DNA from: Prevotella sp.
GTDB taxonomy: Bacteria; Bacteroidota; Bacteroidia; Bacteroidales; Bacteroidaceae
NCBI GenBank assembly: GCA_022511065.1
Contig: JAFLSG010000001.1
Span: forward strand, 63,801-127,800
Length of the DNA stretch: 64,000 nt
Direction: 5' to 3'
Shown: one piece after another, positions 8,377 to 62,200 of the stretch
How positions within the stretch are numbered: position 1 is the first letter of the stretch
Layout: each line of letters starts with the position of its first letter
Program-made: the position numbers and the translations under genes
Notes under the pieces: model-generated
Told to the model about the DNA's origin: nothing
What the model saw: only the letters and a program-made list of their open reading frames with translations
Databases searched by the model: none

Positions 8377-10425
8377 ATGACAAATCGTTATTTCTATAAA
8401 GCAAATATTGCTTCATTTTTGTCAGAAGACACTAATTCTATTTTTGGGAAAATGTCGCGTGCTGACGAAATGGATACAGTTTCTATGCAGAAATTTGCTT
8501 GGGAGCAAGAAATAACTATAATGAAACAAGTCTTTGAATCTTATAAGAATGAGCAAGGATATATATTGTTTGAATACACAATTCCTCGTTTAAATAAGCG
8601 CATAGATGCAGTTGTATTGTTAAAAGAACGTGTTTTTGTAATAGAGTTTAAGGCAGGCGAAGAAGATTTTTTGCGTCATGACGTGGATCAAGTGCTGGAT
8701 TATGCTTTAGATCTTAAGAATTTCCATCAGGGTAGTGTAGATAGAATAATTATTCCTATTTTAGTAGCAACAGAAAGCGAAGCGTACTCTCCCGAACTTT
8801 CCTGTTATGATGATGGAATATACAAACCACTTTTGACAGGTGCAAATCATTTGGATGATATTTTCCGTTTTGTACTATCTCAATCATTGCATAAAACCGA
8901 GTATGTTGTCTCTATGGATGATTGGGCGAGAAGTCGTTATGCTCCAACACCTACTATTATAGAAGCAGCACGTACACTTTATCTTAATCATAGTGTGGCA
9001 GATATCACACGTCATGAAGCAGAAGGTGCACAATTAGAGCAAACAACACGCTATGTGCAAAAGGTTATTCGAGATACAAAAGCACAAGGTAATAAAAGTA
9101 TTTGTTTTGTTACAGGGGTGCCGGGAGCAGGCAAAACATTGGTAGGCTTAAATGTAGCTGTTCAACAAGAAGAATCCCAAGATTTGGCTGTTTATCTTTC
9201 TGGTAATGGTCCTTTAGTGCAGGTGCTAACAGAGGCTTTAACACGTGATAAAAAAGAACAGGAGAAAGCTCAAGGACATAAGATAACAAAAAAGGAAGCT
9301 GAGAGAGAGGTAAAACGTTTTATTCAAATTCTCCATCGCTACCGAGACAATATGCTCAATAAAGTGAAAGTAGTAGATGGTAAATTATGTATTGACCCAT
9401 CGAAAGAACTGAAAGACAAAGAAGCTGGATATGGTGAAGTAGAAAATATTGCTATTTTTGATGAGGCCCAGCGGTCATGGGATAAAGAGCATATTGCAAG
9501 TTGGTTAAGTCGTAAGAAAGGATTTGCTAATTTTCCTATGTCAGAAGGTGAGTTTCTTATATGGTCGCTCGATCAAAGGCCTGACTGGGCTGTGATTGTT
9601 TGTTTGGTGGGAGGCGGACAGGAAATCAACACTGGTGAGGCAGGAATAGGTGAGTGGATTCGCGCACTCAATGATACGTTTCCACATTGGAATGTTTATA
9701 TATCAAATCAATTGACTGCTAAAGAATATGCAGAAGGACACGTAAAAGAGTTATTGGTTAATAATTCACGAGTAACATATACTGACGATTTACATTTGGC
9801 TGTTTCTATGCGTAGTTTCCGTGCTGAAAATTTATCTAATATGGTACATTACTTACTTGATGGAGATACAGAAAATGTAAAGAATATATATAAAGAAATA
9901 GCAGATAAGTACCCTATTATTTTAACCCGCGATCTGAATAAGGCAAAACAATGGTTGCGTCAGCGAGCACGTGGGAATGAACGCTATGGCTTGTTGGCTT
10001 CTTCAAAAGCGGAACGACTTAAACCACTTGCAATAAATGTGCGTTGTAAAACAGATATCGTGCATTGGTTCTTGGACGATATAAATGATGTACGATCATC
10101 GCTTTTCTTAGAAGATGCTGCATCAGAATTTGATGTTCAAGGCTTGGAATTAGATTGGACATGTGTAATTTGGGATGGTGATTTACGATACACATCTGAT
10201 GGATGGTCTTTCTTTGAATTTAATGGAGGAAGTAAATGGAATAATATCAAGAAGGTAGATCGTCAAAACTATCTTATCAACGCTTATCGTGTGCTTCTCA
10301 CTCGCGCAAGACAAGGAATGATTATCTGTGTTCCTGAAGGTGTATTAGAAGATAACACTCGTCTTCCTAAGTTTTACGATGACACATATAATTATCTTAA
10401 AAGTTTAGGATTTGAAGTGATTTAA
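8377..10425 (+). CDS. DUF2075-type protein: N-terminal PD-(D/E)xK-like nuclease fold plus SF1-like ATPase
   Basis: EY..RIDAVVLLKERVFVIEFK (D-ExK motif), Walker A GVPGAGKT, Walker B IFDEAQR, GGGQEIN, and C-terminal YRVLLTRARQGM. The listed start 8350 is TTG, so the ATG at 8377 is preferred. Confidence 0.8.
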   Translation: MTNRYFYKANIASFLSEDTNSIFGKMSRADEMDTVSMQKFAWEQEITIMKQVFESYKNEQGYILFEYTIPRLNKRIDAVVLLKERVFVIEFKAGEEDFLRHDVDQVLDYALDLKNFHQGSVDRIIIPILVATESEAYSPELSCYDDGIYKPLLTGANHLDDIFRFVLSQSLHKTEYVVSMDDWARSRYAPTPTIIEAARTLYLNHSVADITRHEAEGAQLEQTTRYVQKVIRDTKAQGNKSICFVTGVPGAGKTLVGLNVAVQQEESQDLAVYLSGNGPLVQVLTEALTRDKKEQEKAQGHKITKKEAEREVKRFIQILHRYRDNMLNKVKVVDGKLCIDPSKELKDKEAGYGEVENIAIFDEAQRSWDKEHIASWLSRKKGFANFPMSEGEFLIWSLDQRPDWAVIVCLVGGGQEINTGEAGIGEWIRALNDTFPHWNVYISNQLTAKEYAEGHVKELLVNNSRVTYTDDLHLAVSMRSFRAENLSNMVHYLLDGDTENVKNIYKEIADKYPIILTRDLNKAKQWLRQRARGNERYGLLASSKAERLKPLAINVRCKTDIVHWFLDDINDVRSSLFLEDAASEFDVQGLELDWTCVIWDGDLRYTSDGWSFFEFNGGSKWNNIKKVDRQNYLINAYRVLLTRARQGMIICVPEGVLEDNTRLPKFYDDTYNYLKSLGFEVI

Positions 10426-10437
10426 TCTACTTTATAA

Positions 10438-10830
10438 ATGAAACATATTGAAGTAGTTGCAGCAATTATTTCAGACGATCAAGGGCGTGTTTTTGTCACG
10501 CAGCGAGGATATGGTGAATGGAAAGACTATTGGGAGTTTCCTGGCGGTAAGATAGAATCAGGAGAAACTCCAGAAGAAGCGCTGCAACGTGAGATTTGGG
10601 AAGAATTGGAGACACGTGTTGTTATTGAACGATTAATGCATACGGTAGAGTGGGATTATCCAGACTTTCATCTGACGATGCATTGTTATTGGTGTCACGT
10701 GGAGAGTGGTAATTTAACGCTAAAGGAACATGAAGATGCTTGTTGGTTGAAACAAGATGAATTAGAAAAAATGCAATGGCTTCCTGCTGATGTAGAAGTG
10801 GTGAAGATGATTAGTAATGATGTCCTATGA
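10438..10830 (+). CDS. NUDIX hydrolase (MutT/NudG-like (d)NTP pyrophosphohydrolase)
   Basis: Nudix box GGKIESGETPEEALQREIWEELE. 130 aa. 12 nt after the DUF2075 gene. Confidence 0.85.
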   Translation: MKHIEVVAAIISDDQGRVFVTQRGYGEWKDYWEFPGGKIESGETPEEALQREIWEELETRVVIERLMHTVEWDYPDFHLTMHCYWCHVESGNLTLKEHEDACWLKQDELEKMQWLPADVEVVKMISNDVL

Positions 10831-22432: not shown

Positions 22433-22510
22433 GCATCGTTTGAAGCCTCCAAACGCATTGAATTCAGCCTTCAAACGACCCGAATTCAGCCTCCAAACTT
22501 TTGGCTTGGA
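22433..22510. repeat. REP-like GCCTCCAAAC/GTTTGGAGGC hairpin cluster, locus 1
   Basis: cgtttgaagcctccaaacgcattgaattcagccttcaaac (22437-22476) is 39/40 identical to 58492-58531. Confidence 0.7.
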
Positions 22511-24035: not shown

Positions 24036-24140
24036 TGATTGCAATGCCATTCGGTGGTCATAAGATGCCATTTTATTGTCATAAGATTGCTTCTTATGGT
24101 AACAAGATGGCATCTTATCGTGGCAAGGCGCCACATTATT
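24036..24140. repeat. tandem array of five 21-nt phased palindromic units (family 1, array A)
   Basis: Units begin at 24036, 24057, 24078, 24099 and 24120, for example gtcataagatgccattttatt and gtaacaagatggcatcttatc. Confidence 0.8.
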
Positions 24141-24156
24141 CAAATCGGCGATAGCC

Positions 24157-28890: not shown

Positions 28891-29535
28891 ATGCAGAAAG
28901 AGCGCGACAAGGCGGAATCATATCGCAAGGCGGCATACGAGGGTGACGCGAAGGCGATGAACAATCTCGGCGTGTGCTATCATCGTGGCTCCGGCGTGCG
29001 TGAGAACCATGAGCTGGCCTTTGAGTGGTACATGAAGGCGGCATTGCTTGATGATGTCTATGGCTGCTTCAACGTGGCGGAGTGCTATTACAAGGGTGAC
29101 GGGGTAGAGAAGAGCGTTGAGAAGGCTTTCTTTTGGTATCTGAGAGCTGCTGACAAGGGTGACGTGCAATCGCAGGTGAACGTGGCGAATGCCTACTATC
29201 TCGGGCAAGGCACGGAGGTGAGCCATGAGAAGGCTTACTTATGGTATCGCGAAGCTGCGTTTCAGGGGCACATCCAGTCGCAAAAGAACTGTGGCGCGGC
29301 GCATTGGAACGGCGACGGGGCGGAGAAGAATCTGGAGGAATGTGCTTTCTGGTATGAGCTTGCGGCGCATGGCGGCGATGCCCAGGCTCAGTTCATCATC
29401 GGTTGGTTTCACATGACGGGCAACGGCGTGAAGCAGGATGAGAAAGTCGGTCTTAAATGGATTCGCAAGTCCACCTTCCAAGGTTATCAGCCCGCCATCG
29501 ACTATTGCAAGGAGCACGGTTATAAGTGGTATTAG
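28891..29535 (+). CDS. Sel1-repeat (TPR-like) protein
   Basis: Five or more repeats of A..WY.KAA.QG...AQ..LG.CY..G.GV. Confidence 0.85.
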   Translation: MQKERDKAESYRKAAYEGDAKAMNNLGVCYHRGSGVRENHELAFEWYMKAALLDDVYGCFNVAECYYKGDGVEKSVEKAFFWYLRAADKGDVQSQVNVANAYYLGQGTEVSHEKAYLWYREAAFQGHIQSQKNCGAAHWNGDGAEKNLEECAFWYELAAHGGDAQAQFIIGWFHMTGNGVKQDEKVGLKWIRKSTFQGYQPAIDYCKEHGYKWY

Positions 29536-29544
29536 ACCCGTCAG

Positions 29545-29610
29545 GCGTTTGGAGCGTGCAAACGCATCGTTTGGAGGCTGATTTCACCCCATTTGGAGGC
29601 TCCAAACGGC
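29545..29610. repeat. REP-like GTTTGGAGGC hairpin cluster, locus 2 (inverted relative to loci 1 and 3)
   Basis: gcgtttggagcgtgcaaacgc, cgtttggaggctg, and the perfect palindrome tttggaggctccaaa. Confidence 0.7.
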
Positions 29611-29641
29611 AGGGGTGCAGGCGTTGAGCATATCGCTCGCC

Positions 29642-29725
29642 AAACACAACCTACCTTGCGGTAATAATAAGGTGCCATCTTATGCGCGTAAGATGCCTGC
29701 TTATCCGCATAACATGCCTTGTTAT
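29642..29725. repeat. family-1 21-nt units, array B (3-4 units)
   Basis: aataataaggtgccatcttat (29663-83), gcgcgtaagatgcctgcttat (29684-704) and ccgcataacatgccttgttat (29705-25). Confidence 0.7.
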
Positions 29726-29769
29726 TCATTTATCCAACATCCCTGTTTTGCTTTTCCGAAACTTATGCG

Positions 29770-29777
29770 TATCTTTG
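29770..29777 (+). promoter_or_regulatory. -7 box (TATCTTTG) for the alkD-like gene
   Basis: The gcgtatctttgc context is also seen at 40817 and 58753. 28 nt upstream of the ATG at 29805. Confidence 0.55.
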
Positions 29778-29804
29778 CGCAAGATTAAATGACGAGGGTT
29801 TATC

Positions 29805-30824
29805 ATGGCAATGACGGCAAAAGAGATTATCAGCTACATGGAAACGCTCCGCGACGAAAAGCAGCGGAAGATACTAATGCGCTTCTTCAAGACGGCACCA
29901 GGGGAGTACGGCTATGGCGACGAATTTCTCGGTATCAAAGTGCCGCGTACGCGGGAGGTGGTGAGAGTGGCAAAGGATTTGGCATTGAGCGAAGTGCCAG
30001 AATTGCTGATGAGCCGTTGGCACGAGGTGAGGCTCTGCGGTCTGCTGATACTTGTCGCAAAGTTTGAAAAGTTGGCGACGAAGCGGTTGGAGAATGATGT
30101 GGAGGCGACTCGCAAGCGTGATGAAATTGTGAAGCTCTATCTGAAATACGCCGAGCGTGCGAATAATTGGGATTTGGTGGACTTGTCCGTTCATAAGATT
30201 ATTGGGCATTGGTTGTTGTTACCGACCTTTCTCGGTAGCATGCCCGAGTATTCACCTGATGGGTTATCATGCGTGAATAAAGGGATAGATTCCAAATCTC
30301 CAATGGAGGATTTAGCATATTCAAGGGTAGGTGAAGAATTCAAAGGGTCTGGTGAAATATTCAGAGAATTAGATGGGGCTTTCAAAGAGGCAGATAGAGG
30401 ACTCATAGAATCAGATTCTAATTTCCCAAAATTAGATGAAAAAACTCAGATGACGAACGGAGAACCTCAAAAAGTAATCCCAAGCCTTAATCGAGCTTAT
30501 AAGCTGACCATCCTCGACTCGTTGGCTCAAAGCCCCTGTCTGTGGCTTCAGCGCATGAGTATCGTCAGTTCTTGGAAGACCTCTCAGCAAGGCGACCCGT
30601 CTTGGTGTCTGCGCTATGCGGAAATTCATCTTCACCATTCCCACGACCTGATGCACAAGGCTGTCGGCTGGATGCTCCGCGAGATGGGTAAGCGTGTCAG
30701 TATGGATCTGCTCCGCGATTTCCTTCGTCAGCATGCCCACGAAATGGCGCGTACCACGCTCCGCTATGCCATAGAGAAGATGTCTGAGCAGGAACGAAGG
30801 ATGTGGATGGCAAAGCCTACTTGA
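29805..30824 (+). CDS. DNA alkylation repair protein (AlkD-like HEAT-repeat glycosylase family) carrying an internal insertion
   Basis: FFKTAPGEYGYGDEFLGIKVP..., NNWDLVD and HKAVGWMLRE are typical of the family. 339 aa against roughly 230-240 aa expected. Confidence 0.75.
   Translation: MAMTAKEIISYMETLRDEKQRKILMRFFKTAPGEYGYGDEFLGIKVPRTREVVRVAKDLALSEVPELLMSRWHEVRLCGLLILVAKFEKLATKRLENDVEATRKRDEIVKLYLKYAERANNWDLVDLSVHKIIGHWLLLPTFLGSMPEYSPDGLSCVNKGIDSKSPMEDLAYSRVGEEFKGSGEIFRELDGAFKEADRGLIESDSNFPKLDEKTQMTNGEPQKVIPSLNRAYKLTILDSLAQSPCLWLQRMSIVSSWKTSQQGDPSWCLRYAEIHLHHSHDLMHKAVGWMLREMGKRVSMDLLRDFLRQHAHEMARTTLRYAIEKMSEQERRMWMAKPT
30234..30506 (+). repeat. in-frame 21-nt (heptad) periodic low-GC insertion inside the alkD-like gene
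   Basis: Codons for F/L/Y recur every 21 nt (30318, 30339, 30360, 30381, 30402, 30423). Units include ttcaaagggtctggtgaaata, ttcagagaattagatggggct and ttcaaagaggcagatagagga. Confidence 0.6.
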
Positions 30825-31334
30825 CCTCACATCAACCAGATTGAAACAAAGGTTGCTTATCAGCCTATTTTTGCACAGGCAATAGCATAGCGGTAGCGAA
30901 AAATAGCGTAAATACTGCCTTTCCATATCATACCAAAAATAGGAGAACGACCTTCCCAGGCCGTTCTCCTTCGTGTTAATCATAGTACCACTTGTAAGTA
31001 GTCCGCTACCGTTATCACCGGTTTAAGACATCCAAGTGAACATCCTTGCTGCTTCAGTAGCAGTTTATTTTTATCTGGTGCAAAGATAATATAATACATT
31101 GAAATAACCAAACAAATTTATAGGTTATTTCAAAAATAACATTTGTTTGAAAAGTTTTATTTCGTTTAACGTAAATAATTGAATATCAATACTATTATGT
31201 TTTAACTTTGTATATTTTACACTTATTTGAAAACCAATGTATAAACATTATATTTTTATACATTTTATTACCTATTATCAATACGTATGTAGCTAAAACG
31301 GAGGGAATTCCTTTGTTTTCACAGGATTTTGCAG

Positions 31335-31342
31335 TAACTTTG
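31335..31342 (+). promoter_or_regulatory. -7 box (TAACTTTG) for metG
   Basis: TAnnTTTG 32 nt upstream of the ATG at 31374. Confidence 0.5.
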
Positions 31343-31373
31343 TACCCAAATTAATAAATACGTATTCAGACAA

Positions 31374-33440
31374 ATGGCAGACAAGAACTTTAAGCGCACC
31401 ACCGTGACGGCAGCATTGCCATATGCCAACGGCGGGGTGCATATTGGACACCTGGCGGGAGTGTATGTGCCCGCTGACATATACGTGCGTTACCTGCGAT
31501 TGAAAAAGCGCGAGGTGATGTTCATCGGTGGAAGCGACGAGCACGGCGTGCCTATCACCATCCGCGCACGCAAGGAGGGCATCACGCCGCAGGACGTGGT
31601 GGACCGCTACCACGAGATGATCAAAAAGAGTTTTGAGGACTTCGGCATCTCGTTCGACATCTACAGCCGCACAACCTCGGAGACGCACCACAAGTTTGCC
31701 GCCGAGTGGTTCCGTAAGCTCTATGACGACGGGAAACTGACGGAGGAGACGACCACGCAACTCTACGACGAGGAGGCAAAGCAATTCCTGGCTGACCGCT
31801 ACGTGACGGGTGAGTGCCCCCACTGCCACGCTGAGGGCGCTTATGGCGACCAGTGCGAGAAATGCGGGCGCGACCTGAGTCCCACGGAGCTGATTAACCC
31901 GAAATCGACCATCAGCGGCTCCACGCCTGTGCTGAAGGAGACGAAAAACTGGTATCTGCCACTGAACGAGTATCAGGAGTGGCTGAAGCAGTGGATCCTG
32001 GAGGAGCACAAGGAGTGGAGGCCCAACGTATATGGGCAATGCAAGTCGTGGCTCGATATGGATCTGCAGCCGCGGGCGATGACGCGCGACCTGGACTGGG
32101 GCATCCCCGTGCCTGTGGAGGGTGCTGACGGTAAGGTGCTCTATGTATGGTTTGACGCACCTATCGGCTACGTGTCGAACACCGTGGAACTCTGTGGGAA
32201 GCAGCCGGAGCGATGGGGCGCGTGGGAGAAGTGGTGGCAGGATGAAGAGACGAGGCTAGTACACTTCATCGGCAAGGACAACATCGTGTTCCACTGTGTG
32301 ATCTTCCCCGTGATGATGCGGGCGCACGGCAAGTATATTATGCCCGACAACGTGCCCGCCAACGAGTTTCTGAACCTGGAGAACGACAAGATCTCCACCT
32401 CGCGTAACTGGGCGGTGTGGCTGCACGAATATCTGGTGGATATGCCCGGAAAGCAGGATGTGCTCCGCTACGTGCTGACCGCCAATGCCCCGGAAACGAA
32501 AGACAACAACTTCACCTGGAAGGACTTCCAAGACCGCAACAACAACGAACTGGTGGCCGTATATGGCAACTTCGTGAACCGTGCGCTGCAACTGACGAAG
32601 AAATACTGGGGGGGCGTGGTGCCTGTGTGCGGAGAACTGCAGGATATCGACCGCGCGGCACTCGATGAGTTCAAGGACGTGAAGGAGAAGGTAGAGAGTC
32701 TGCTTGAGCAGTTTAAGTTCCGCGATGCACAGAAAGAGGCGATGAACCTTGCGCGCATCGGCAACAAGTATATCACCGACTGCGAGCCGTGGAAGGTGGC
32801 GAAGACGGACATGAAGCGCGTGGAGACCATCCTCTACATCTCGTTGCAGCTGACCGCCAATCTTGCCATCGCCTTCGAACCTTTCCTGCCCTTCTCCTCA
32901 AAGCGCCTCCGCGAGATGCTTAACATCAAGCACTTCGAGTGGGAGCAGTTGGGCGGCACCGACCTACTGAAGGCGGGTCACCAATTGGCAGAGCCGAGCC
33001 TGCTGTTCGAGAAGATAGAAGACGCGACCATACAGGCGCAACTCGACAAGCTTGAGGCCACGAAGAAGGCCAACAAGGCGGCAGCCTACAAGGCAGCGCC
33101 CATAAAGGACACCGTATCGTTTGAGGACTTCGAGAAACTCGACATTCGCGTAGGTCTCGTCAAGGACTGCCAGCGGGTGAAGAAATCGAAGAAGCTCCTG
33201 CAGTTCACCATCGACGATGGTTCGGGTACCGACCGCACCATCCTCAGCGGCATTGCCGCCTTCTATGAGGATCCCTCCGCATTGGTGGGCAAGCGTATCC
33301 TCTTCGTTGCCAACTTCGCCCCCCGCGCGATGATGGGTATCGAGAGCCAGGGTATGATCCTCTCCGCCGTGGATGCTGACGAGAGCCTCAGCGTGGTGAC
33401 GACTACGAAAGATGTGAAGCCGGGGAGTCAGGTGGGGTAA
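31374..33440 (+). CDS. metG: methionine--tRNA ligase (with C-terminal tRNA-binding domain)
   Basis: HIGH ([10 protein letters not shown]), the KMSKS-equivalent KISTS, a CxxC zinc knuckle and a Trbp111-like C-terminus. Confidence 0.97.
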
Positions 33441-40875: not shown

Positions 40876-41295
40876 ATGAGAAGAACAATTTCCACATTTT
40901 TCGTGCTGTTCGCCAATGTCGTCATATTGGCGCATGCTGTTGTTCCGCATCATCACCACAACAAGAGTTTCGCCGCCGTTGTCAATATTTTAGGCGGTCA
41001 TGCCGATGAGGAGCGATTTCATGCTCAATGCGCCAACTCGCACCATCATGACAACGATTCGGGCGAGTGTCTCATCAACGAGGCTTATGCGCCGGCTAAG
41101 GAGGCATTTGAGCAGAATAACATGCCTGGTTACGATGATAACCAGCCTGGTTATGATGCTGACTTTGGCAGGTATATCGTTGTAGCGCAGCCGGAGGTGA
41201 CTGCATACGCATATCGGCAACAACCATACGATGATGACGACCATCTTGCGCCTATATATCGCACTAACGGACTCCGTGCGCCGCCTTTTTGCTGA
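40876..41295 (+). CDS. His-rich membrane-anchored small protein (probable metal-binding, RND-operon associated)
   Basis: MRRTISTFFVLFANVVILAHAVVPHHHHNK...SHHHDNDSGEC. The start is set at the first ATG after the promoter; the listed ORF starts at 40774. Confidence 0.5.
   Translation: MRRTISTFFVLFANVVILAHAVVPHHHHNKSFAAVVNILGGHADEERFHAQCANSHHHDNDSGECLINEAYAPAKEAFEQNNMPGYDDNQPGYDADFGRYIVVAQPEVTAYAYRQQPYDDDDHLAPIYRTNGLRAPPFC
41116..41157 (+). repeat. two family-1 21-nt units in frame inside the His-rich gene (array D)
   Basis: aataacatgcctggttacgat and gataaccagcctggttatgat. 41138-41154 has perfect palindromic arms ATAACCAG-C-CTGGTTAT. Translated as NNMPGYD DNQPGYD. Confidence 0.7.
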
Positions 41296-45983: not shown

Positions 45984-47630
45984 ATGATTATGAGAGAAAA
46001 TATGATAAGCAGTAGCCTGAGGGTGATAACCAGGCTTGTTATGATGATAAAGTGCCTGGTTATGACGATAAGATGCCTGGTTAAGATGATAAGATGCCTG
46101 GTTAAGATGATAAGATGCCATGTTATGGCAATGGAAGAAATAAATGTTGTTATGAACGGTATGAAATCCTTAACACTTGATGTGAAAGCATCTGCAAGTG
46201 ATTTGATAGCAGAGGCAAGGGGGGTAAAGGTATCAGTAGGCGGTAAGGGGCTAATTGCAGGCGGTAAGGGATTGCTTGCTGGCAACAAGGATTTGATTGC
46301 AAGCCGCAGGGATTTGATAGCAAGCAGCATAAGGCTTGCAGCAATCGTTGTCTTTTTGTTTGTGATGCTGCCCGTTTCGGGGCAAAATATGTCTGCCGTT
46401 ATGCAAGGTACTTTCACCGATGAGCCAAGTGCTCCTATTACTGAGCAGAATGCTTCAACAATTGGGCAAATGACTCCTATAACGATGCAAGATGCTCTCG
46501 CAACAAGCAAAGATGTCTATACTCCTATATTAAAGACAATCGAACAAAACAGCCTGACGCTCGATGCGCTAAAGAAACAAGCGGAGGCACGGAAAACCGG
46601 CAACAGGACGGGGCTCACCCCCGCCAATCCAGAAGTTGAGTTCGGTTATTTGTGGGGCAACCCTGTTGCCATCGGCAACCGAAAGGATATCAGCGTCCGC
46701 CAGACATTCGATTTCCCCACGGTGTATGCCCAGCGGAGCAAACTGGCGGATGCACAAGATGACAATGCGGAATATGAATATCGCGCGCAACGCGCTGACT
46801 TGCTGCTTGCGGCAAAAAGAACCTGCATCGAACTGGTTTATTATAACGCTCTGAGCGCACTCTATGCCGAGCAAACCGAAAATGCTCGCCAGATTATGAA
46901 TGCCGTTGAGAAGATGCGGCAGGCGGGCGAGGCGAACATATTGGAGTATAATAAGGCGGTGCTGAACCACACGAACATCAGCGGTGAACTGAATCGCACG
47001 AATCTTGAGCGCCGTCGTTTGCTCGCTGAACTGACAAGGATGAACGGTGGACAGCCGATAGTGTTCGATTGCGCATCCTATGGTTCCCACGCCCTGCCCG
47101 CTGACTTCGATAGTTGGTATGCCGAGGCTGAGGCCAATGCTCCTGCACTCCATTATCTCAAGGCGCAGGCAGAAGCAAGCAATCGGCAGGTCAGTCTGAC
47201 GAAAGCCTCAACGCTTCCGAAGTTTTCGGTGGGTTATATGGGCGAGTTCGTGACTGGTGAAAAGTTTCAGGGCATCACCGTGGGTATGAGCATCCCCCTT
47301 TGGGAAAACAAGAACAAAGTAAGACAAGCCGAAGCCGAGGCGCGAACGGCCGTACAACTTGCGGAAGATGCTCGGATGCAGTATTATAACCGCCTGAAAA
47401 GCCTCTATGCTGAAATCGCAGGCCTGCAGGAGAATGTGCGGCAATACGATGCCGTGCTTCAGCAGAACGACAATGCCCGTTTGCTCCTCAAAGCCTATCA
47501 AAGCGGTGAGATTTCCCTCTTGGAATATCTGCTCGAAATGGAATATCATTTCACCGCGCTTGATAAACGGTTGCAGGCAGAGCGAGATTTGGAGTTGGCA
47601 TTGGCGGAATTGAATGCTTATCAGTTATAA
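45984..47630 (+). CDS. TolC family outer-membrane efflux protein (CzcC-like); true start uncertain
   Basis: The mature part (from about 46386) is TolC-like with two repeat halves. The signal-like h-region RLAAIVVFLFVMLPVSGQ lies about 120 codons into the ORF. The only in-frame ATGs upstream of it lie in or before the repeat arrays. Confidence 0.75.
   Translation: MIMRENMISSSLRVITRLVMMIKCLVMTIRCLVKMIRCLVKMIRCHVMAMEEINVVMNGMKSLTLDVKASASDLIAEARGVKVSVGGKGLIAGGKGLLAGNKDLIASRRDLIASSIRLAAIVVFLFVMLPVSGQNMSAVMQGTFTDEPSAPITEQNASTIGQMTPITMQDALATSKDVYTPILKTIEQNSLTLDALKKQAEARKTGNRTGLTPANPEVEFGYLWGNPVAIGNRKDISVRQTFDFPTVYAQRSKLADAQDDNAEYEYRAQRADLLLAAKRTCIELVYYNALSALYAEQTENARQIMNAVEKMRQAGEANILEYNKAVLNHTNISGELNRTNLERRRLLAELTRMNGGQPIVFDCASYGSHALPADFDSWYAEAEANAPALHYLKAQAEASNRQVSLTKASTLPKFSVGYMGEFVTGEKFQGITVGMSIPLWENKNKVRQAEAEARTAVQLAEDARMQYYNRLKSLYAEIAGLQENVRQYDAVLQQNDNARLLLKAYQSGEISLLEYLLEMEYHFTALDKRLQAERDLELALAELNAYQL
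46002..46127. repeat. family-1 21-nt units, array C1 (six units)
   Basis: atgataagatgcctggttaag occurs twice, plus variants. The array begins 22 nt after the czcA-like stop. Confidence 0.8.
46239..46343. repeat. second 21-nt tandem array (C2, five units, different sequence family)
   Basis: ggcggtaaggggctaattgca, ggcggtaagggattgcttgct, ggcaacaaggatttgattgca, agccgcagggatttgatagca and agcagcataaggcttgcagca. Confidence 0.75.
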
Positions 47631-50833: not shown

Positions 50834-53098
50834 CTACAAATTGATGGAGGCAGAAAGTTGCTTGGCGCTGACGGTCAGGGTAGCCTTCCCCTTCGGGCTG
50901 TTGTGGCGGATTACTGCCAATGCACGGCCTTTCCAAGCATGGTGGGTCGCGTCAAAATACGGCTCCTCACTCTTGATGTCCGCATTGCCTGCCCCTAATA
51001 GCGTGCCGTTGCCACGAACATTGAAAGTAAGTTCATCGTCAGCCTCGGGCACGAGATTACCTTGTGCATCGACAATCTCAACGGTCACAAACGTGAGTTC
51101 ACGACTCTTACCGCTTTCAGCCGTGAGCCTGATAGCGGCGGGCTTGCCTGCCGTCTGCAAGGTAACAGACTCCCCACCGGCTTCCGCACGAAGCGTACCG
51201 GGAGTATAGGGCAGGGTAAACAATGCCATCATCTTCTCAGTAGGCTGCTCGGCAATGAGTTGGTCGTTCAGATACAACTTGACAGACGGCAGAGGACTAT
51301 AAACCTCCACGGTGATTTCCTTGCCTTCCCAACCTTCCCAAGTCCAGCTTTCAAACGTTGGGTGCGTGCCCCAGAGGGTGGTCTTAATGCTCCCGTGATA
51401 CCCCTCCGGCTCACGGACAGCCATATAGATTTGCTCAACAGGCATTTTATTCGCATAAGATGCCTTGTTATCATCATAAGATGCCATCTTATCAGCGTCA
51501 GCAGGCTTGCTGTTCCAGAGGATGGAGCGATAGTGACTGACAGGCTTGCGCAGACCCGTCAGATCCACGTCACCGCAATAGGCAGCGTGCCACGGATAGA
51601 GCGGACGCTCCCAATGCTCGCCCGGAGCATCCCCCTCGTAATACCACCGCCCGATGCCCGACTCGCCAAGATAGTCAAGCCCCGTCCACACAAAGTCGCC
51701 AATCACGTAAGGGAGCCGCGTCGTGCGCTCATAGTTCTCCCAAGTATCACGCGCATAGGATTCCGTCTGCATCATCACCCGATTGGGCACGCGCTCGTGG
51801 TCGCTCTCAGCCTTGCGCATCATATAGTTGTAGCCTACGATATCGTGCTCGGCGGCAAGCGGGTCATAGATGTCCCAGTCGGCATCCCACGCGGCGAGGG
51901 CGGAGGTTACGGGGCGGTCGTCGAGCGTCTTGATGTATTGTATCATCTTGTGGGCGGTCTTGATGACCTCTATTTTCTTGCGCTCAATCACCTCGTTGCC
52001 GATAGACCAGCAGAAGATGCTCGGATGATTGCGGTCGCGGCACACCATCGCCTGCAGGTCATGCTGCCACCACTCGTCAATCAGCGTGGAATAGTCGTGG
52101 TCGTTCTTTGCATCGCGCCAGCCGTCGAAAGCCTCGTCAATCACCAGCAGACCCAATTCGTCGCACGCATTCAGAAACGCCTCTGAGGGCGGATTATGTG
52201 AGGTGCGCACGGCATTGAAGCCTGCCTCTTTCATCAGCCGAGCCTTGCGATACTCGGCATCATCGTAGGCTGCCACGCCAATGATACCGTTGTCGTGATG
52301 CAGGCACGCGCCGTTGAGATTCAAGGGCTTACCGTTCAGCAACAAACCCTTTTCCGCAGAATATTCTATCGTGCGGATGCCGTAGGTAACGGGAATCTTG
52401 TCGCCTTCAGCCTCAATCTCCGTATGGTAGAGATAAGGATTATCGGGCGACCACAACTGGGGATTGTCAATGTGGATTGTGCGCTGAATGGGTTCATTCG
52501 TGCCGTCTTCACGGACAAGCATCGCATTCAGTTCAACGGTGTGCGTATCGGGAGTTCTCACCTGGACGCTCCAGTCATCAATGTATGTCTTGCCTGTGGT
52601 CACCATCCATACGTTGCGATAGATGCCGCTCCCCGCATACCATCGGCAGTTCTTTTGCCGTGAATTATCCACGCTTACCGTCACCTCGTTCTTGCCAAAA
52701 TGGAGGTAAGGCGTGGCATCCACCCAGAAGGATGAGTATCCGTAGGGCCATCCGCCGGCAAGATGACCGTTCACATAGACCTTTGAATCCATATACACGC
52801 CCTCGAAGTAGAGCCTGATTTTCTTGTCCTGATATTCCTTGCCGAGTGTCAGCACGCGGCGATACCATCCCTTGCCAGTCGGCAGGTATCCGCCATCGTT
52901 TCCTGCCGGGGTGGCGGCATCGAATCTTTGCAGGATGCTCCAGTCGTGAGGCAGGGTTACAGGCTGTGCCTTCGTGAAATCACTATCGTTCAAAACGAAC
53001 TGCCAGCCGTCGTTCAGCAGCTGTTTACGGGCGGCTTCTTTTGCCCCTATTGCCGTGGTCAGCAGCACCATAAAGCAGAGGATAATACCTTTTTTCAT
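50834..53098 (-). CDS. glycoside hydrolase family 2 (beta-galactosidase-like)
   Basis: Signal peptide. NAVRTSHNPPS and WSIGNEV catalytic motifs. Confidence 0.9.
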   Translation of the reverse strand: MKKGIILCFMVLLTTAIGAKEAARKQLLNDGWQFVLNDSDFTKAQPVTLPHDWSILQRFDAATPAGNDGGYLPTGKGWYRRVLTLGKEYQDKKIRLYFEGVYMDSKVYVNGHLAGGWPYGYSSFWVDATPYLHFGKNEVTVSVDNSRQKNCRWYAGSGIYRNVWMVTTGKTYIDDWSVQVRTPDTHTVELNAMLVREDGTNEPIQRTIHIDNPQLWSPDNPYLYHTEIEAEGDKIPVTYGIRTIEYSAEKGLLLNGKPLNLNGACLHHDNGIIGVAAYDDAEYRKARLMKEAGFNAVRTSHNPPSEAFLNACDELGLLVIDEAFDGWRDAKNDHDYSTLIDEWWQHDLQAMVCRDRNHPSIFCWSIGNEVIERKKIEVIKTAHKMIQYIKTLDDRPVTSALAAWDADWDIYDPLAAEHDIVGYNYMMRKAESDHERVPNRVMMQTESYARDTWENYERTTRLPYVIGDFVWTGLDYLGESGIGRWYYEGDAPGEHWERPLYPWHAAYCGDVDLTGLRKPVSHYRSILWNSKPADADKMASYDDNKASYANKMPVEQIYMAVREPEGYHGSIKTTLWGTHPTFESWTWEGWEGKEITVEVYSPLPSVKLYLNDQLIAEQPTEKMMALFTLPYTPGTLRAEAGGESVTLQTAGKPAAIRLTAESGKSRELTFVTVEIVDAQGNLVPEADDELTFNVRGNGTLLGAGNADIKSEEPYFDATHHAWKGRALAVIRHNSPKGKATLTVSAKQLSASINL
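51430..51492 (-). repeat. three family-1 21-nt units in frame inside GH2 (array E)
   Basis: tcgcataagatgccttgttat and catcataagatgccatcttat. 51476-51492 has perfect arms ATAAGATG-C-CATCTTAT. Translated as DKMASYD DNKASYA NKMPVEQ. Confidence 0.75.
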
Positions 53099-58480: not shown

Positions 58481-58554
58481 TGAATTCAATGCGTTTGAAG
58501 CCTCCAAACGCATTGAATTCAGCCTCCAAACAAGTCGTTTGAAGCCTCCAAACG
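58481..58554. repeat. REP-like GCCTCCAAAC hairpin cluster, locus 3
   Basis: Three copies of (c)gtttgaagcctccaaac(g). 39/40 identical to locus 1 over 40 nt. Confidence 0.7.
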
Positions 58555-59220: not shown

Positions 59221-62200
59221 ATGAAGATAGAAGAATTGTTTGAGCGGTGTGCGCGTTTGGCGGAGGTGGCCGAGCCAACGGCAGATGCCAACCGCTATAT
59301 GCACGAGACACTCGTGCTGTGCTGTGCCGAAGGGCTGCACAATTCAGGGCAGGCCTACGGCAATGTATTCTCGCAGGTGGATTATCTCTGCAAGCAGCAC
59401 GAAGTGCGCACAAGCGACAGGATTGCCATCCAGACGATGCGGCGGCACTCAAACCATCCGACGCCACTCAGCAGGGAAGACCTGATGTACGATGTCCGTG
59501 CGCTCTGCCTGCTGATTTCCGCCGTCTTCTCGGTGGATATTCCCGGCAATCTCGTGCGACTTATTCCCACGGAGAACAAGCCTTCGGCGCATCGGGCGGG
59601 CATCGACCACAAATATGTGCGCTGCATCGTCAGCCGATGGAATGACCAACTGATCTATGCAGACACGGACGACGGGGAGATTGCCATTGACTACACCTAC
59701 AATGAAAACGGTGCGGACTTCGGTTATCTGAAGAAATTGCTGTGCGAGGGGATGCAGTTGAATCTGTTGGACTGCAAATTAGTGCGCGCAGACGAGGCTG
59801 CTGATTGCGACGATAAAGAGGCTGATTACAATGATAAGGAGGCATCTTATGATAATAACCAGGCTTCTTACGAGGGGATGCAAATACTCCGCCCCGGCCT
59901 TGTGGTGGTGGAGCCGGATTTCATGGTGGATATTTCCGCCATTGCCCGCTGCTTTACCGACTACGGTCATCACCCGCTGCTCTACACCACGAACCGCCTG
60001 AAGAAGCGGGCTGTGACGCAGCCCATCCTCTTGGGAAACTTTGCGGGTACGGCTTTGGACGGGATTATCAACAGCGATGCGTTTCAGATGGGTGACGCCA
60101 TCACAAACATCTTTCGCGAACAGGCGCTGCAATTCTCTTGCCTGAACGATTTCGACGGCGGACAATTCAAGGAGGATGCCAGTCAGCAAGTGGGGCATAT
60201 ACAAGAGGCAGTGCAGGTGTTTTTTAGTGAGCATGACCGCTATCAGGCGCTCTTGGAACCGTCATTCGTCTGCGAGCGTTTGGGACTTCAGGGGCGTGTC
60301 GATCTGATGACCGCCGACATGAAGCTGTTAGTGGAGCAGAAAGCGGGCAAGAACATGAACATAGAACACCCCTCCGAGGGCAACCAGCAGCGTGAGGACC
60401 ACTACGTTCAGCTGCTATTATATTATGGTGTGCTGCGCTATAACTTCGGGATTTCCGACGAGAAAGCAGACATTCGCCTGCTTTATTCCAAGTATCCCGC
60501 CCGCGAAGGCTTGATGGTCGTGAACTTCTACCGCCAACTATTCCGCGATGCCATCAAGTTTCGCAACCAAGCCGTTGCCACGGAATATATGATGGCACGG
60601 GAGGGATTCGGTAAGATTCTGCCCCATCTTGCACTCCCGACCATCTACGGTGGTGCGAAGCGAGATACCTTTTTCACCCGGTTTATCGAGCCGGAGTTGT
60701 TGGAGATAGAACGGCATCACGCCGCCCTTTCGCCCTTTGAGCGTACCTATTATACCCGTATGATGACCTTTGTCTATCGCGAGCAGCTTTATGCAAAGGT
60801 CGGTTCGCAGGAAGGTAAATCCGCTTCGGTGGCTGATCTCTGGAACATGCCGCTGCACGAAAAGCGTGATACGGGTAACATCTATACCGACTTGACCATC
60901 ATTGACCGCCAGCAGTCTGCCCCCCATCGCGGCTATGACGTGCTGACTTTCGCCATTCCCGAGCAGGGAAGCGACTTCCTTCCGAACTTCCGCCGCAACG
61001 ATATGGTGTATCTTTATGCCTCGGAGGGCGAACCGGATGTCTGTAAGAGCATCTTGTATAAGGGTACGATAGCGCAGATAGGGGAGGGCGAGGTCATGGT
61101 AAGGCTAAACGACGGACAGCAAAATCCGAATGTATTCCCACAGGAACGGAAGTACGTGATAGAGCATGGAGACTCTGACCTGACGACGACGAGCAACATC
61201 CGCAGTCTGCACGAACTGATGTCGGCGCAGCCTTCGCAGCGGAATCTGCTGCTCGGGCAGCGTGCGCCGGAGGCGGATATGGCGCAAACGCTCTCCAAAA
61301 ACTATCATCCCGACTATGACGAGGTGCTGCTGAAAGCCAAGCAAGCCAAGGATTACTTCCTGTTGATTGGGCCTCCTGGTACGGGAAAGACCTCGAAAGC
61401 ACTGCGCTATATGGTAGAGGAAGCACTCACTACAGGCGGCGAGGCGCTTCTGCTGCTGAGCTATACCAACCGCGCTGTGGATGAAATCTGCGCGATGCTC
61501 AGCGGTGCGGGGTTTGATTACGTGCGGATTGGCAGGGAAAGCTCGTGCGACCCTCGCTTTGCCAGTCATCTGCTGGAGCATCAGTTGGGGGAGAATCCGA
61601 AACTGGATGATGTCCGTCGCCGGCTCTTACAGGTTCCTATCATCGTGGGAACCACCTCGATGATTCAGGCAAACGCCTCCATTTTCGCGCTGAAACCGTT
61701 CGGACTGGCAATTATCGACGAGGCTTCACAGATATTAGAGCCGAACTTGGTAGGCATCTTGTCGAGTGTGCGGAAGTTCATACTGATAGGCGACCACAAG
61801 CAATTGCCCGCTGTCGTGCAGCAGCCGGAGGCGGAGAGCAAGGTCGCGGACGAGTGTCTGCAAGCCATCTGCCTGACCGATTGCCGCCATTCGCTCTTCG
61901 AGCGGCTGCTCCGTTGGGAGCGGAAGTGCGGGCGTGAGCAGTTTGTTGGCGTGCTTCGCAAGCAGGGGCGCATGCATCCGGCGATAGCGGAATTCCCTTG
62001 CAGGATGTTCTATGCTGCCGAGCAATTAGAGCCTGTGCCTTGCGAGCATCAGCAAGAAACGTCGCTCGGCTACGACTTAGCGGCGGAAGACGCATTGGAT
62101 GAACGGCTCAAAGCGCAGCGTATGCTGTTCATTCCCTCGGAAGATGAGCGGGGAATCGGCATCCCATGCTCCGACAAGGCAAACCTTTCGGAAGCGCGCA

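Follow-up and report, generated by a model that had tools for sequence, protein, structure and literature searches.

In-frame coding tandem repeats of bacteria are usually discussed in surface proteins. Such coding minisatellites consist of head-to-tail units with a length that is a multiple of three, occupy surface or disordered positions, differ in length between close alleles and evolve under relaxed constraint. We describe a sequence with these attributes in the gene for a putative AlkD-type DNA glycosylase, located on a 64,000-nucleotide stretch of an uncultured rumen Prevotella sp. (GenBank assembly GCA_022511065.1, contig JAFLSG010000001.1, positions 63,801 to 127,800 of the forward strand; henceforth the window). 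The gene carries an 88-codon in-frame insert that we regard as probably a locally generated, locus-specific coding minisatellite, housed in a permissive loop and carried as a nearly neutral, disordered passenger. It differs from the described coding minisatellites in its host, a cytoplasmic repair enzyme, in the age and strong divergence of its units (50-60% identity) and in an allele difference that does not amount to whole units.

Two classes of dispersed repeats are also known to reside in frame within bacterial genes. Rickettsia palindromic elements (RPEs) are palindromes that group into families by sequence, and tens of copies are spread over unrelated genes and intergenic DNA (PMC10969869, PMC3733652). 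The window insert resembles them in being an in-frame insertion in the range of ~100-300 nt, in a housekeeping gene, at a position compatible with the fold, and in encoding a peptide without a homologue; unlike RPEs, it is not palindromic and is single-copy in all sequence searched. Intragenic repetitive extragenic palindromic sequences (REPs) tagged with GTAG or CGTC have been described, many of them within genes for replication and repair (Di Nocera et al. 2013, PMC3733652), and different REPs lie near the same site in recB of two Xanthomonas species (PMC3733652). The DNA repair host is a point of likeness to these intragenic REPs, as are the palindromes in the corresponding loop of one orthologue (L010, below), which begin GGAG or GTAG and are intergenic elsewhere, whereas the window insert has neither a hairpin nor the copy number of a REP.

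The best-studied relative of the host protein is AlkD of Bacillus cereus, a HEAT-like-repeat glycosylase (PMC1874660; PDB 3BVS, 5UUF) with an active site composed of Trp109, Asp113, Arg148 and Trp187 (PMC1874660). The window protein shares the fold and conserves the W-x3-D, W-L-Q-R and G-W-x-L-R-E motifs, but its sequence identity to AlkD is only ~15% and it has ~85 extra residues between the presumed equivalent of Asp113 and that of Arg148.

An in-frame insert in an AlkD-type gene

The gene and its presumed catalytic motifs are:

29805..30824, + strand: alkD-type gene, putative alkylpurine DNA glycosylase with HEAT-like repeats, PF08713, 339 aa (Pfam match, Foldseek, constraint on the core)
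30168..30182, + strand: W122-D-L-V-D126 motif, presumed counterpart of AlkD Trp109/Asp113 (invariant in 50 orthologues; equivalence from the motif only)
30552..30554, + strand: R250, counterpart of AlkD Arg148 in a W-L-Q-R motif downstream of the insert (phmmer alignment; invariant in orthologues; role from PMC1874660)

The predicted protein matches the PF08713 (DNA_alkylation) profile of Pfam with 155.1 bits against a cut-off of 21. The match is split into two stretches, the second pairing residues 233-326 with profile positions 121-213, and the domain is therefore interrupted by the insert. By phmmer, similarity to the solved B. cereus AlkD structures is weak and restricted to the C-terminal part (E ~5e-4), where W-L-Q-R250 is aligned with WLQR and G-W289-M-L-R-E with GWVLRE of AlkD, the motifs to which Arg148 and Trp187 belong. 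The eight top Foldseek matches are all B. cereus AlkD structures (probability 1.00, target-normalised TM score 0.68-0.75), and the core fold is, as modelled, an AlkD-like alpha-alpha superhelix.

In the AlphaFold2 model, built from 50 homologues, the core has a predicted local distance difference test score (pLDDT) of ~90, whereas residues 146-221, which belong to the insert, score below 50. The insert is modelled with low confidence, as a loop that runs from core helix 122-136 to core helix 230-241, the sole helix modelled within it being a short, low-confidence one at residues 183-199. W122 and D126, the presumed equivalents of Trp109 and Asp113 by their WDLVD motif, sit at the N-terminal end of helix 122-136, which precedes the insert, and R250 sits near the N-terminal end of helix 246-261. 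Helix 122-136 gives way to the insert at its C-terminal end; judged from this topology, the insert should stick out at the solenoid edge remote from the catalytic residues.

The extent of the insert follows from a comparison of 204 orthologous sequences (120 protein clusters and 84 gene-bearing loci, 80 of the latter from GTDB species representatives); the loci are almost all from uncultured rumen Prevotella or Prevotellaceae.

30234..30497, + strand: lineage-specific in-frame insert of 88 codons, residues 144-231 (loop comparison of the 204 orthologues; pLDDT; ratio of nonsynonymous to synonymous substitution rates, dN/dS; GC content at third codon positions, GC3)

The initial annotation, made from the sequence alone, had pointed to a low-GC, 21-nt periodic, in-frame segment at 30234-30506 and to a protein longer than its family, and had suggested orthologue alignment and structure prediction as checks. 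The excess length is evident from the orthologues, which mostly have 250-262 aa against 339 aa in the window, and the alignment fixed the boundaries of the 88 inserted codons at residues 144-231: the proposed start is exact and the proposed end lies 9 nt too far. Between the anchors 'HWLLLP' and '[IV]LD' there are 95 residues in the window protein and 11 in most orthologues, typically 'SNLGDRDYKIK'; the 264-nt insert replaces ~3 residues ('DRD') of the minimal loop.

The insert differs from its host gene in composition as well. Its GC content is 0.40 against 0.52 for the remaining gene, and its GC3 is 0.31 against 0.65; the noncoding DNA of the window has a matching GC content of 0.39. Only one other region of the window, a low-GC island at 8377-10830, contains 88-codon stretches with a GC3 of 0.33 or less. 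Across the insert the gene's own frame is the only open one, as four of the five others have 7-12 stops and the remaining one, on the minus strand, has a single stop. The encoded peptide is net acidic (17 D+E against 11 K+R) and the core net basic (32 against 41); the product of the insert is an acidic loop, rich in glycine and serine and probably disordered. An intron or structured RNA was considered and rejected, for Rfam gave no match at E <=1 in 29000-31500, and the conserved frame and the in-frame indels described below favour translation. Minus-strand promoter-like hexamers inside the insert (30442-30415, 30385-30356) are no commoner than in shuffled sequences (6 versus 3.8 +/- 1.8).

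A degenerate 21-nt array within the insert

The periodicity of the insert resides in the DNA. Within 30234-30506, lags of 21, 42 and 63 give base identities of 0.433, 0.394 and 0.405, compared with ~0.22-0.33 for the majority of the other lags. The value at lag 21 was not attained by any of 5000 codon shuffles, including when each shuffle was allowed its maximum over all multiple-of-3 lags (null mean 0.331, sd 0.016). The lag-21 peak is confined to the insert, the remaining gene being without one.

30276..30443, + strand: core of a degenerate array of eight 21-nt (7-codon) units, consensus approximately TTCAAAGAGTTAGATGAAAAA (unit identity matrix, shuffle test, position-weight-matrix scan)

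Pairs of units share 5-13 of 21 bases, mostly 10-13, and translate as, for example, FKGSGEI, FRELDGA, FKEADRG, LIESDSN and FPKLDEK. When the window was scanned with a two-unit position weight matrix, consecutive pairs of the array scored 26-36 and the best pair elsewhere scored 15. The array is degenerate enough for Tandem Repeats Finder to report 2.2 copies only, at 30319-30363. Its units run head to tail with a constant period divisible by three, as in coding tandem repeats generally. A heptad pattern had been proposed for the whole extra part of the protein; this pattern arises from the 21-nt DNA repeat. In 30234-30506, the two leading and three trailing blocks of 21 nt show no recognisable repetition.

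Alleles and selective constraint

The insert is limited to one tight clade, in which the core is at least 96% identical to that of the window, and the next relatives (86% identity or less) carry short or unrelated loops. Within the clade, the full array is present in the window (339 aa) and in one further locus, L001 (338 aa). A short form of 300-302 aa, lacking a net 111 nt, is represented by eight protein clusters, of which five are also available as DNA (L002, L085-L088).

30342..30452, + strand: net 111-nt segment, present in the window and L001 and absent from the 300-302-aa alleles, which have 'DVCSYA' there (DNA alignment; protein alignment of seven alleles); its boundaries shift by ~12 nt either way with the alignment

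This segment is the most periodic part of the insert, and alleles with and without it coexist in the same species-level population. All length changes of the insert, of 3 nt and of 111 nt, are in frame. The insert-bearing contigs share the gene order of the window and were assembled independently, which makes an assembly error an unlikely source of the insert. In the core, the seven insert-bearing alleles give a tree of poor resolution (no bootstrap above 0.76), in which the window and L001 do not group together despite their shared array. Either the array is ancestral and was later partly deleted, or it was exchanged between alleles by recombination.

Among these seven alleles, dN/dS is 0.03-0.15 for the core and 0.39-1.91 for the insert, with similar dS in both. 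The low values of the core, obtained with the insert in place, indicate that the host enzyme is under strong purifying selection, and those of the insert indicate that its sequence is almost unconstrained.

Indels at the same loop in orthologues

The loop that houses the insert is the only recurrent site of internal indels in the 204 orthologues, a single sequence having a 4-residue insertion elsewhere. A homologous domain at this position in distant orthologues, which would have spoken against an insertion, was not found: most orthologues have no insert, and local alignment of the window insert to 12 other loop fillers gave p >=0.08 against shuffles in every case. Homology to the 'GRDIDSKEFRRQGVVP...' fillers of other lineages was accordingly rejected. 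The fillers of the other lineages are mutually unrelated, and three of them contain dispersed repeats.

The first of the three is the loop of L010 (3427-3533), which carries two copies of the palindrome GGAGACGCAAAATTTTGCGTCTCTAC around a second hairpin. These copies have the form GGAGACGCAA(A/G)ATTTTGCGTCTCTAC and are read in frame as 'GDAKFCVST'; the same palindrome is found in another species at L073:1576-1604, between convergent genes, where it begins GTAG. In the second, L021 (from the metagenome-assembled genome RUG12019), the loop hairpin CCCCCTGTTTAGGGGGA is in frame as 'TPSGSPCLGG' and recurs five times within the next 3 kb. The element (GACCCCCTCTGGCTCCCCCTGTTTAGGGGGA; L021 4107-4170, 5731-5760, 6018-6050 and 6163-6200) is hosted by the AlkD loop, a GHMP-kinase gene, a nucleoside triphosphate (NTP)-transferase gene (twice) and the end of a DUF559 gene. 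The third loop, of L013 (1658-1779), is a 57-nt tandem duplication with 95% identity, and each copy holds a 30-nt CT-rich element that is dispersed over four genomes and recurs at L013 2260-2289, L012 5820-5849, L019 3-34 and L047 2313-2344. Finally, the loops of L007 and L009 are internal duplications of the native 'G-x-ELD-x-H-x-D-x-K'. Together these fillers show that, in this group, the loop is subject to tandem duplication as well as to the capture, in frame, of dispersed repeats.

Two observations on these relatives are added here. Two of the genes that host the L021 hairpin have 'DPSNSP(V/A)' as their final residues, a hint that a further repeat may occur at the 3' ends of genes. Several relatives have an AlkD domain with an additional C-terminal part of ~300 residues fused to it, for a total of 549-601 aa (P0010, P0011, P0042, P0075, P0079, P0087, P0099, P0104 and P0118, and open reading frames (ORFs) in L019, L024, L035, L049 and L059); Pfam found no significant match for this extension in P0010 and P0099, the two checked.

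Searches for further copies

The initial annotation had likened the insert to RPEs. This analogy was not supported for the insert itself, as it has no palindromic character, no terminal repeats and no second copy in the data searched. Folded as single-stranded DNA it reaches -22.6 kcal/mol, compared with a shuffle mean of -22.75 (z = 0.04). Neither terminal inverted repeats nor flanking direct repeats of the kind left by target duplication are present at the insert, and the only inverted pair nearby (10 nt, 90%) has its arms at 30183 and 30455, off the insert ends. A second copy was found neither in the 64-kb window (blastn, tblastn and the two-unit profile scan), nor at non-orthologous positions in 589 kb comprising the window and related loci, nor in JGI metagenomes. 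Phages gave a single 23-nt match (E = 0.07) and plasmids none. [quoted passage not shown]

At the protein level, Pfam reported nothing for the insert even at E = 10. A HMMER scan of 1.84 billion representative proteins gave nine weak matches only, to repetitive WD40-type or adhesin-like proteins and each summed from 4-9 stretches, in a library of representatives that can hide sporadic insertions and that lacks the window's own insert too. Searches of 5.8 billion proteins with the insert alone and with an alignment of eight variants returned nothing, missed the known positives P0001-P0009 and are hence uninformative and no sign of absence.

The behaviour of RPEs is nevertheless seen elsewhere, in the orthologue loops of other species that hold dispersed repeats and in a repeat of the window termed family 1. 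Its 21-nt unit contains the 17-nt near-palindrome ATAAGATGCCWNNTTAT and encodes, where translated, a peptide of roughly D-K-M/E-P/A-G/D-Y-D.

24059-24142, 29666-29728 and 46025-46129: family 1, intergenic arrays
29666..29728, + strand: of these, the three-unit array ~80 nt upstream of the alkD start codon, outside the insert
59800-59843: family 1, in frame in a helicase-like ORF, 'DKEADYNDKEASYD'
51454-51494: family 1, in frame in a GH2 ORF, 'DKMASYDDNKASY'
41117-41158: family 1, in frame in a DUF6769 ORF, 'NMPGYDDNQPGYD'

By analogy, this occurrence in unrelated genes as well as between genes is RPE-like. The unit of the insert differs from that of family 1, as the initial annotation had noted: similarity of the insert to the family 1 profile is at chance (p = 0.44), and the family 1-like array at 59812 scores 13.7 with the insert profile, within the range of chance matches (up to 15.2). 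The array upstream of alkD numbers three units in the window and in L002 and L085; L001 and L086 show a clean 21-nt gap and have exactly two. This one-unit difference is direct evidence for the gain or loss of 21-nt units in the population.

A second repeat family of the window, with a period of ~22 nt and the palindrome CGTTTGGAGGCTCCAAACG, occurs at 22444-22498, 29548-29610 and 58492-58553. One array of this period lies directly downstream of the Sel1-repeat gene that precedes alkD.

Origin of the insert

We consider a locally generated coding minisatellite the probable origin of the insert. Several lines of evidence point in this direction: the 21-nt periodicity, the restriction to one clade, the relaxed constraint on the insert, the in-frame indels and the single open frame, the low-confidence loop in an AlkD-like model, the permissive loop, the duplications in the same loop of other lineages, the unit slippage in the array upstream, the noncoding-like GC content and the lack of another copy in the sequence searched. 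An AT-rich seed of unspecified origin would have entered the loop that separates the W122/D126 helix from the outer helix that follows. One 21-nt unit of the seed might then have been multiplied in tandem, through slippage during replication or through unequal recombination, each gain or loss of a unit preserving the frame because 21 is divisible by three. The copies would have decayed to ~50-60% identity and the array been partly deleted in some alleles, while the loop drifted almost neutrally towards a noncoding-like composition and the enzyme stayed under strong purifying selection. Both slippage as the generating mechanism and the neutrality of the loop for enzyme function are what we infer from these patterns.

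Several observations weigh against this scenario. The 111-nt difference between alleles corresponds to 5.3 units of 21 nt, that is, not to whole units, and its junctions are diverged; a clean gain or loss of a 21-nt unit was not observed inside the gene among the compared alleles. The first ~40 nt and last ~55 nt of the insert are non-periodic, so slippage cannot explain the arrival of the first sequence. A GC3 of 0.31 is hard to obtain from adjacent coding DNA with a GC3 of 0.65, which argues for a seed that was AT-rich from the outset, and such a seed would also fit a foreign or mobile origin. The copy search covered 64 kb of the source genome. Moreover, a dN/dS near 1 is still compatible with selection on length, charge or disorder.

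The main alternative, possible but unlikely, derives the insert from a small selfish repeat of dispersed type (RPE-, REP- or MITE-like, or a family 1 array that has diverged), one copy of which would have landed in frame in the permissive loop and decayed until its distinguishing features were lost. The setting lends itself to this idea. Orthologue loops hold dispersed repeats, namely the L010 palindrome, the L021 hairpin and the 30-nt element of L013; family 1, which also has a 21-nt unit, is in frame in three genes of the window and has an array 80 nt upstream; the composition of the insert is noncoding-like; and intragenic REPs are documented, many in DNA repair genes (PMC3733652). This reading draws on precedent in orthologues and on composition, not on features of the insert itself, which is at the level of shuffled sequence in its folding, is free of terminal inverted and flanking direct repeats, is without a second copy in the window, the 589 kb, the JGI metagenomes, phages or plasmids, and resembles family 1 no more than by chance.

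Rather unlikely, in our view, is a broader version of this idea, in which rumen Prevotellaceae harbour several small-repeat families that routinely insert into housekeeping genes without breaking the frame, as in Rickettsia, the AlkD loop receives such repeats time and again, and the window array is a diverged or private relative of family 1 that was amplified in place. If true, there would be an RPE-like system in Bacteroidota, and the AlkD gene would be a natural record of repeated in-frame colonisation.

We regard it as quite doubtful that selection maintains the loop as a functional module, such as a flexible acidic arm that tunes DNA binding or brings in a partner; its targets would then be length, charge and disorder, not the exact sequence. 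In favour of such a module, at least seven diverged alleles have kept the frame open across 88 AT-rich codons, the acidic insert is opposed to a net positive core, and fillers were acquired at the site independently in many lineages. However, a neutral insert would also stay open, as a frameshift or stop within it would inactivate a selected gene. The dN/dS of ~0.4-1.9, the coexistence in one clade of alleles with and without 37 loop residues, the minimal loop of most orthologues, and the fillers of other lineages, unrelated in sequence and in three cases plainly repeat DNA, all argue against a selected module.

That a fragment was captured from a foreign gene, for instance one for WD40 repeats or an adhesin, is very improbable, because the matches that suggest it (WD40 'FSPDGLSIVSG...PFKGH' against 'YSPDGLSCV...EFKGSG' at E = 2e-7 and weaker; a repetitive adhesin-like protein at E = 1.9e-9) are rejected as chance similarity with E-values inflated by summing 4-9 weak within-protein repeat matches, at 26-38% identity over ~35-60 residues, because Pfam is empty and the 21-nt periodicity foreign to WD40 repeats, and because the sole viral-contig match (L089) amounts to the 8-residue search pattern, which lies antisense to a real ORF in a frame that is not coding.

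As a probable coding minisatellite, the insert itself is a fresh example of an already known type of event, and a small example of a bacterial enzyme that would have gained a disordered loop from repeat DNA and retained its function. The loop marks a structurally permissive site in AlkD-type glycosylases that could serve for tagging or engineering. The wider pattern is of greater interest, in that, across rumen Prevotellaceae, one loop acquired its fillers independently, some by tandem duplication and others as dispersed hairpin repeats. These fillers and the in-frame repeats in several unrelated genes suggest that the colonisation of coding genes by in-frame repeats, for which Rickettsia is the best-known case, may be common in this abundant group of gut and rumen bacteria.

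Further features of the window

The low-GC island at 8377-10830 contains a 682-aa ORF, followed by a small ORF; the GC3 of the 682-aa ORF is ~0.25, compared with 0.61 +/- 0.09 for the genes of the window, and the island is probably acquired DNA. Downstream of alkD, a very AT-rich intergenic stretch at 31050-31300 (GC 0.18-0.30) separates the gene from the next long ORF (31374-33440, + strand) and holds the best promoter-like matches of the region.

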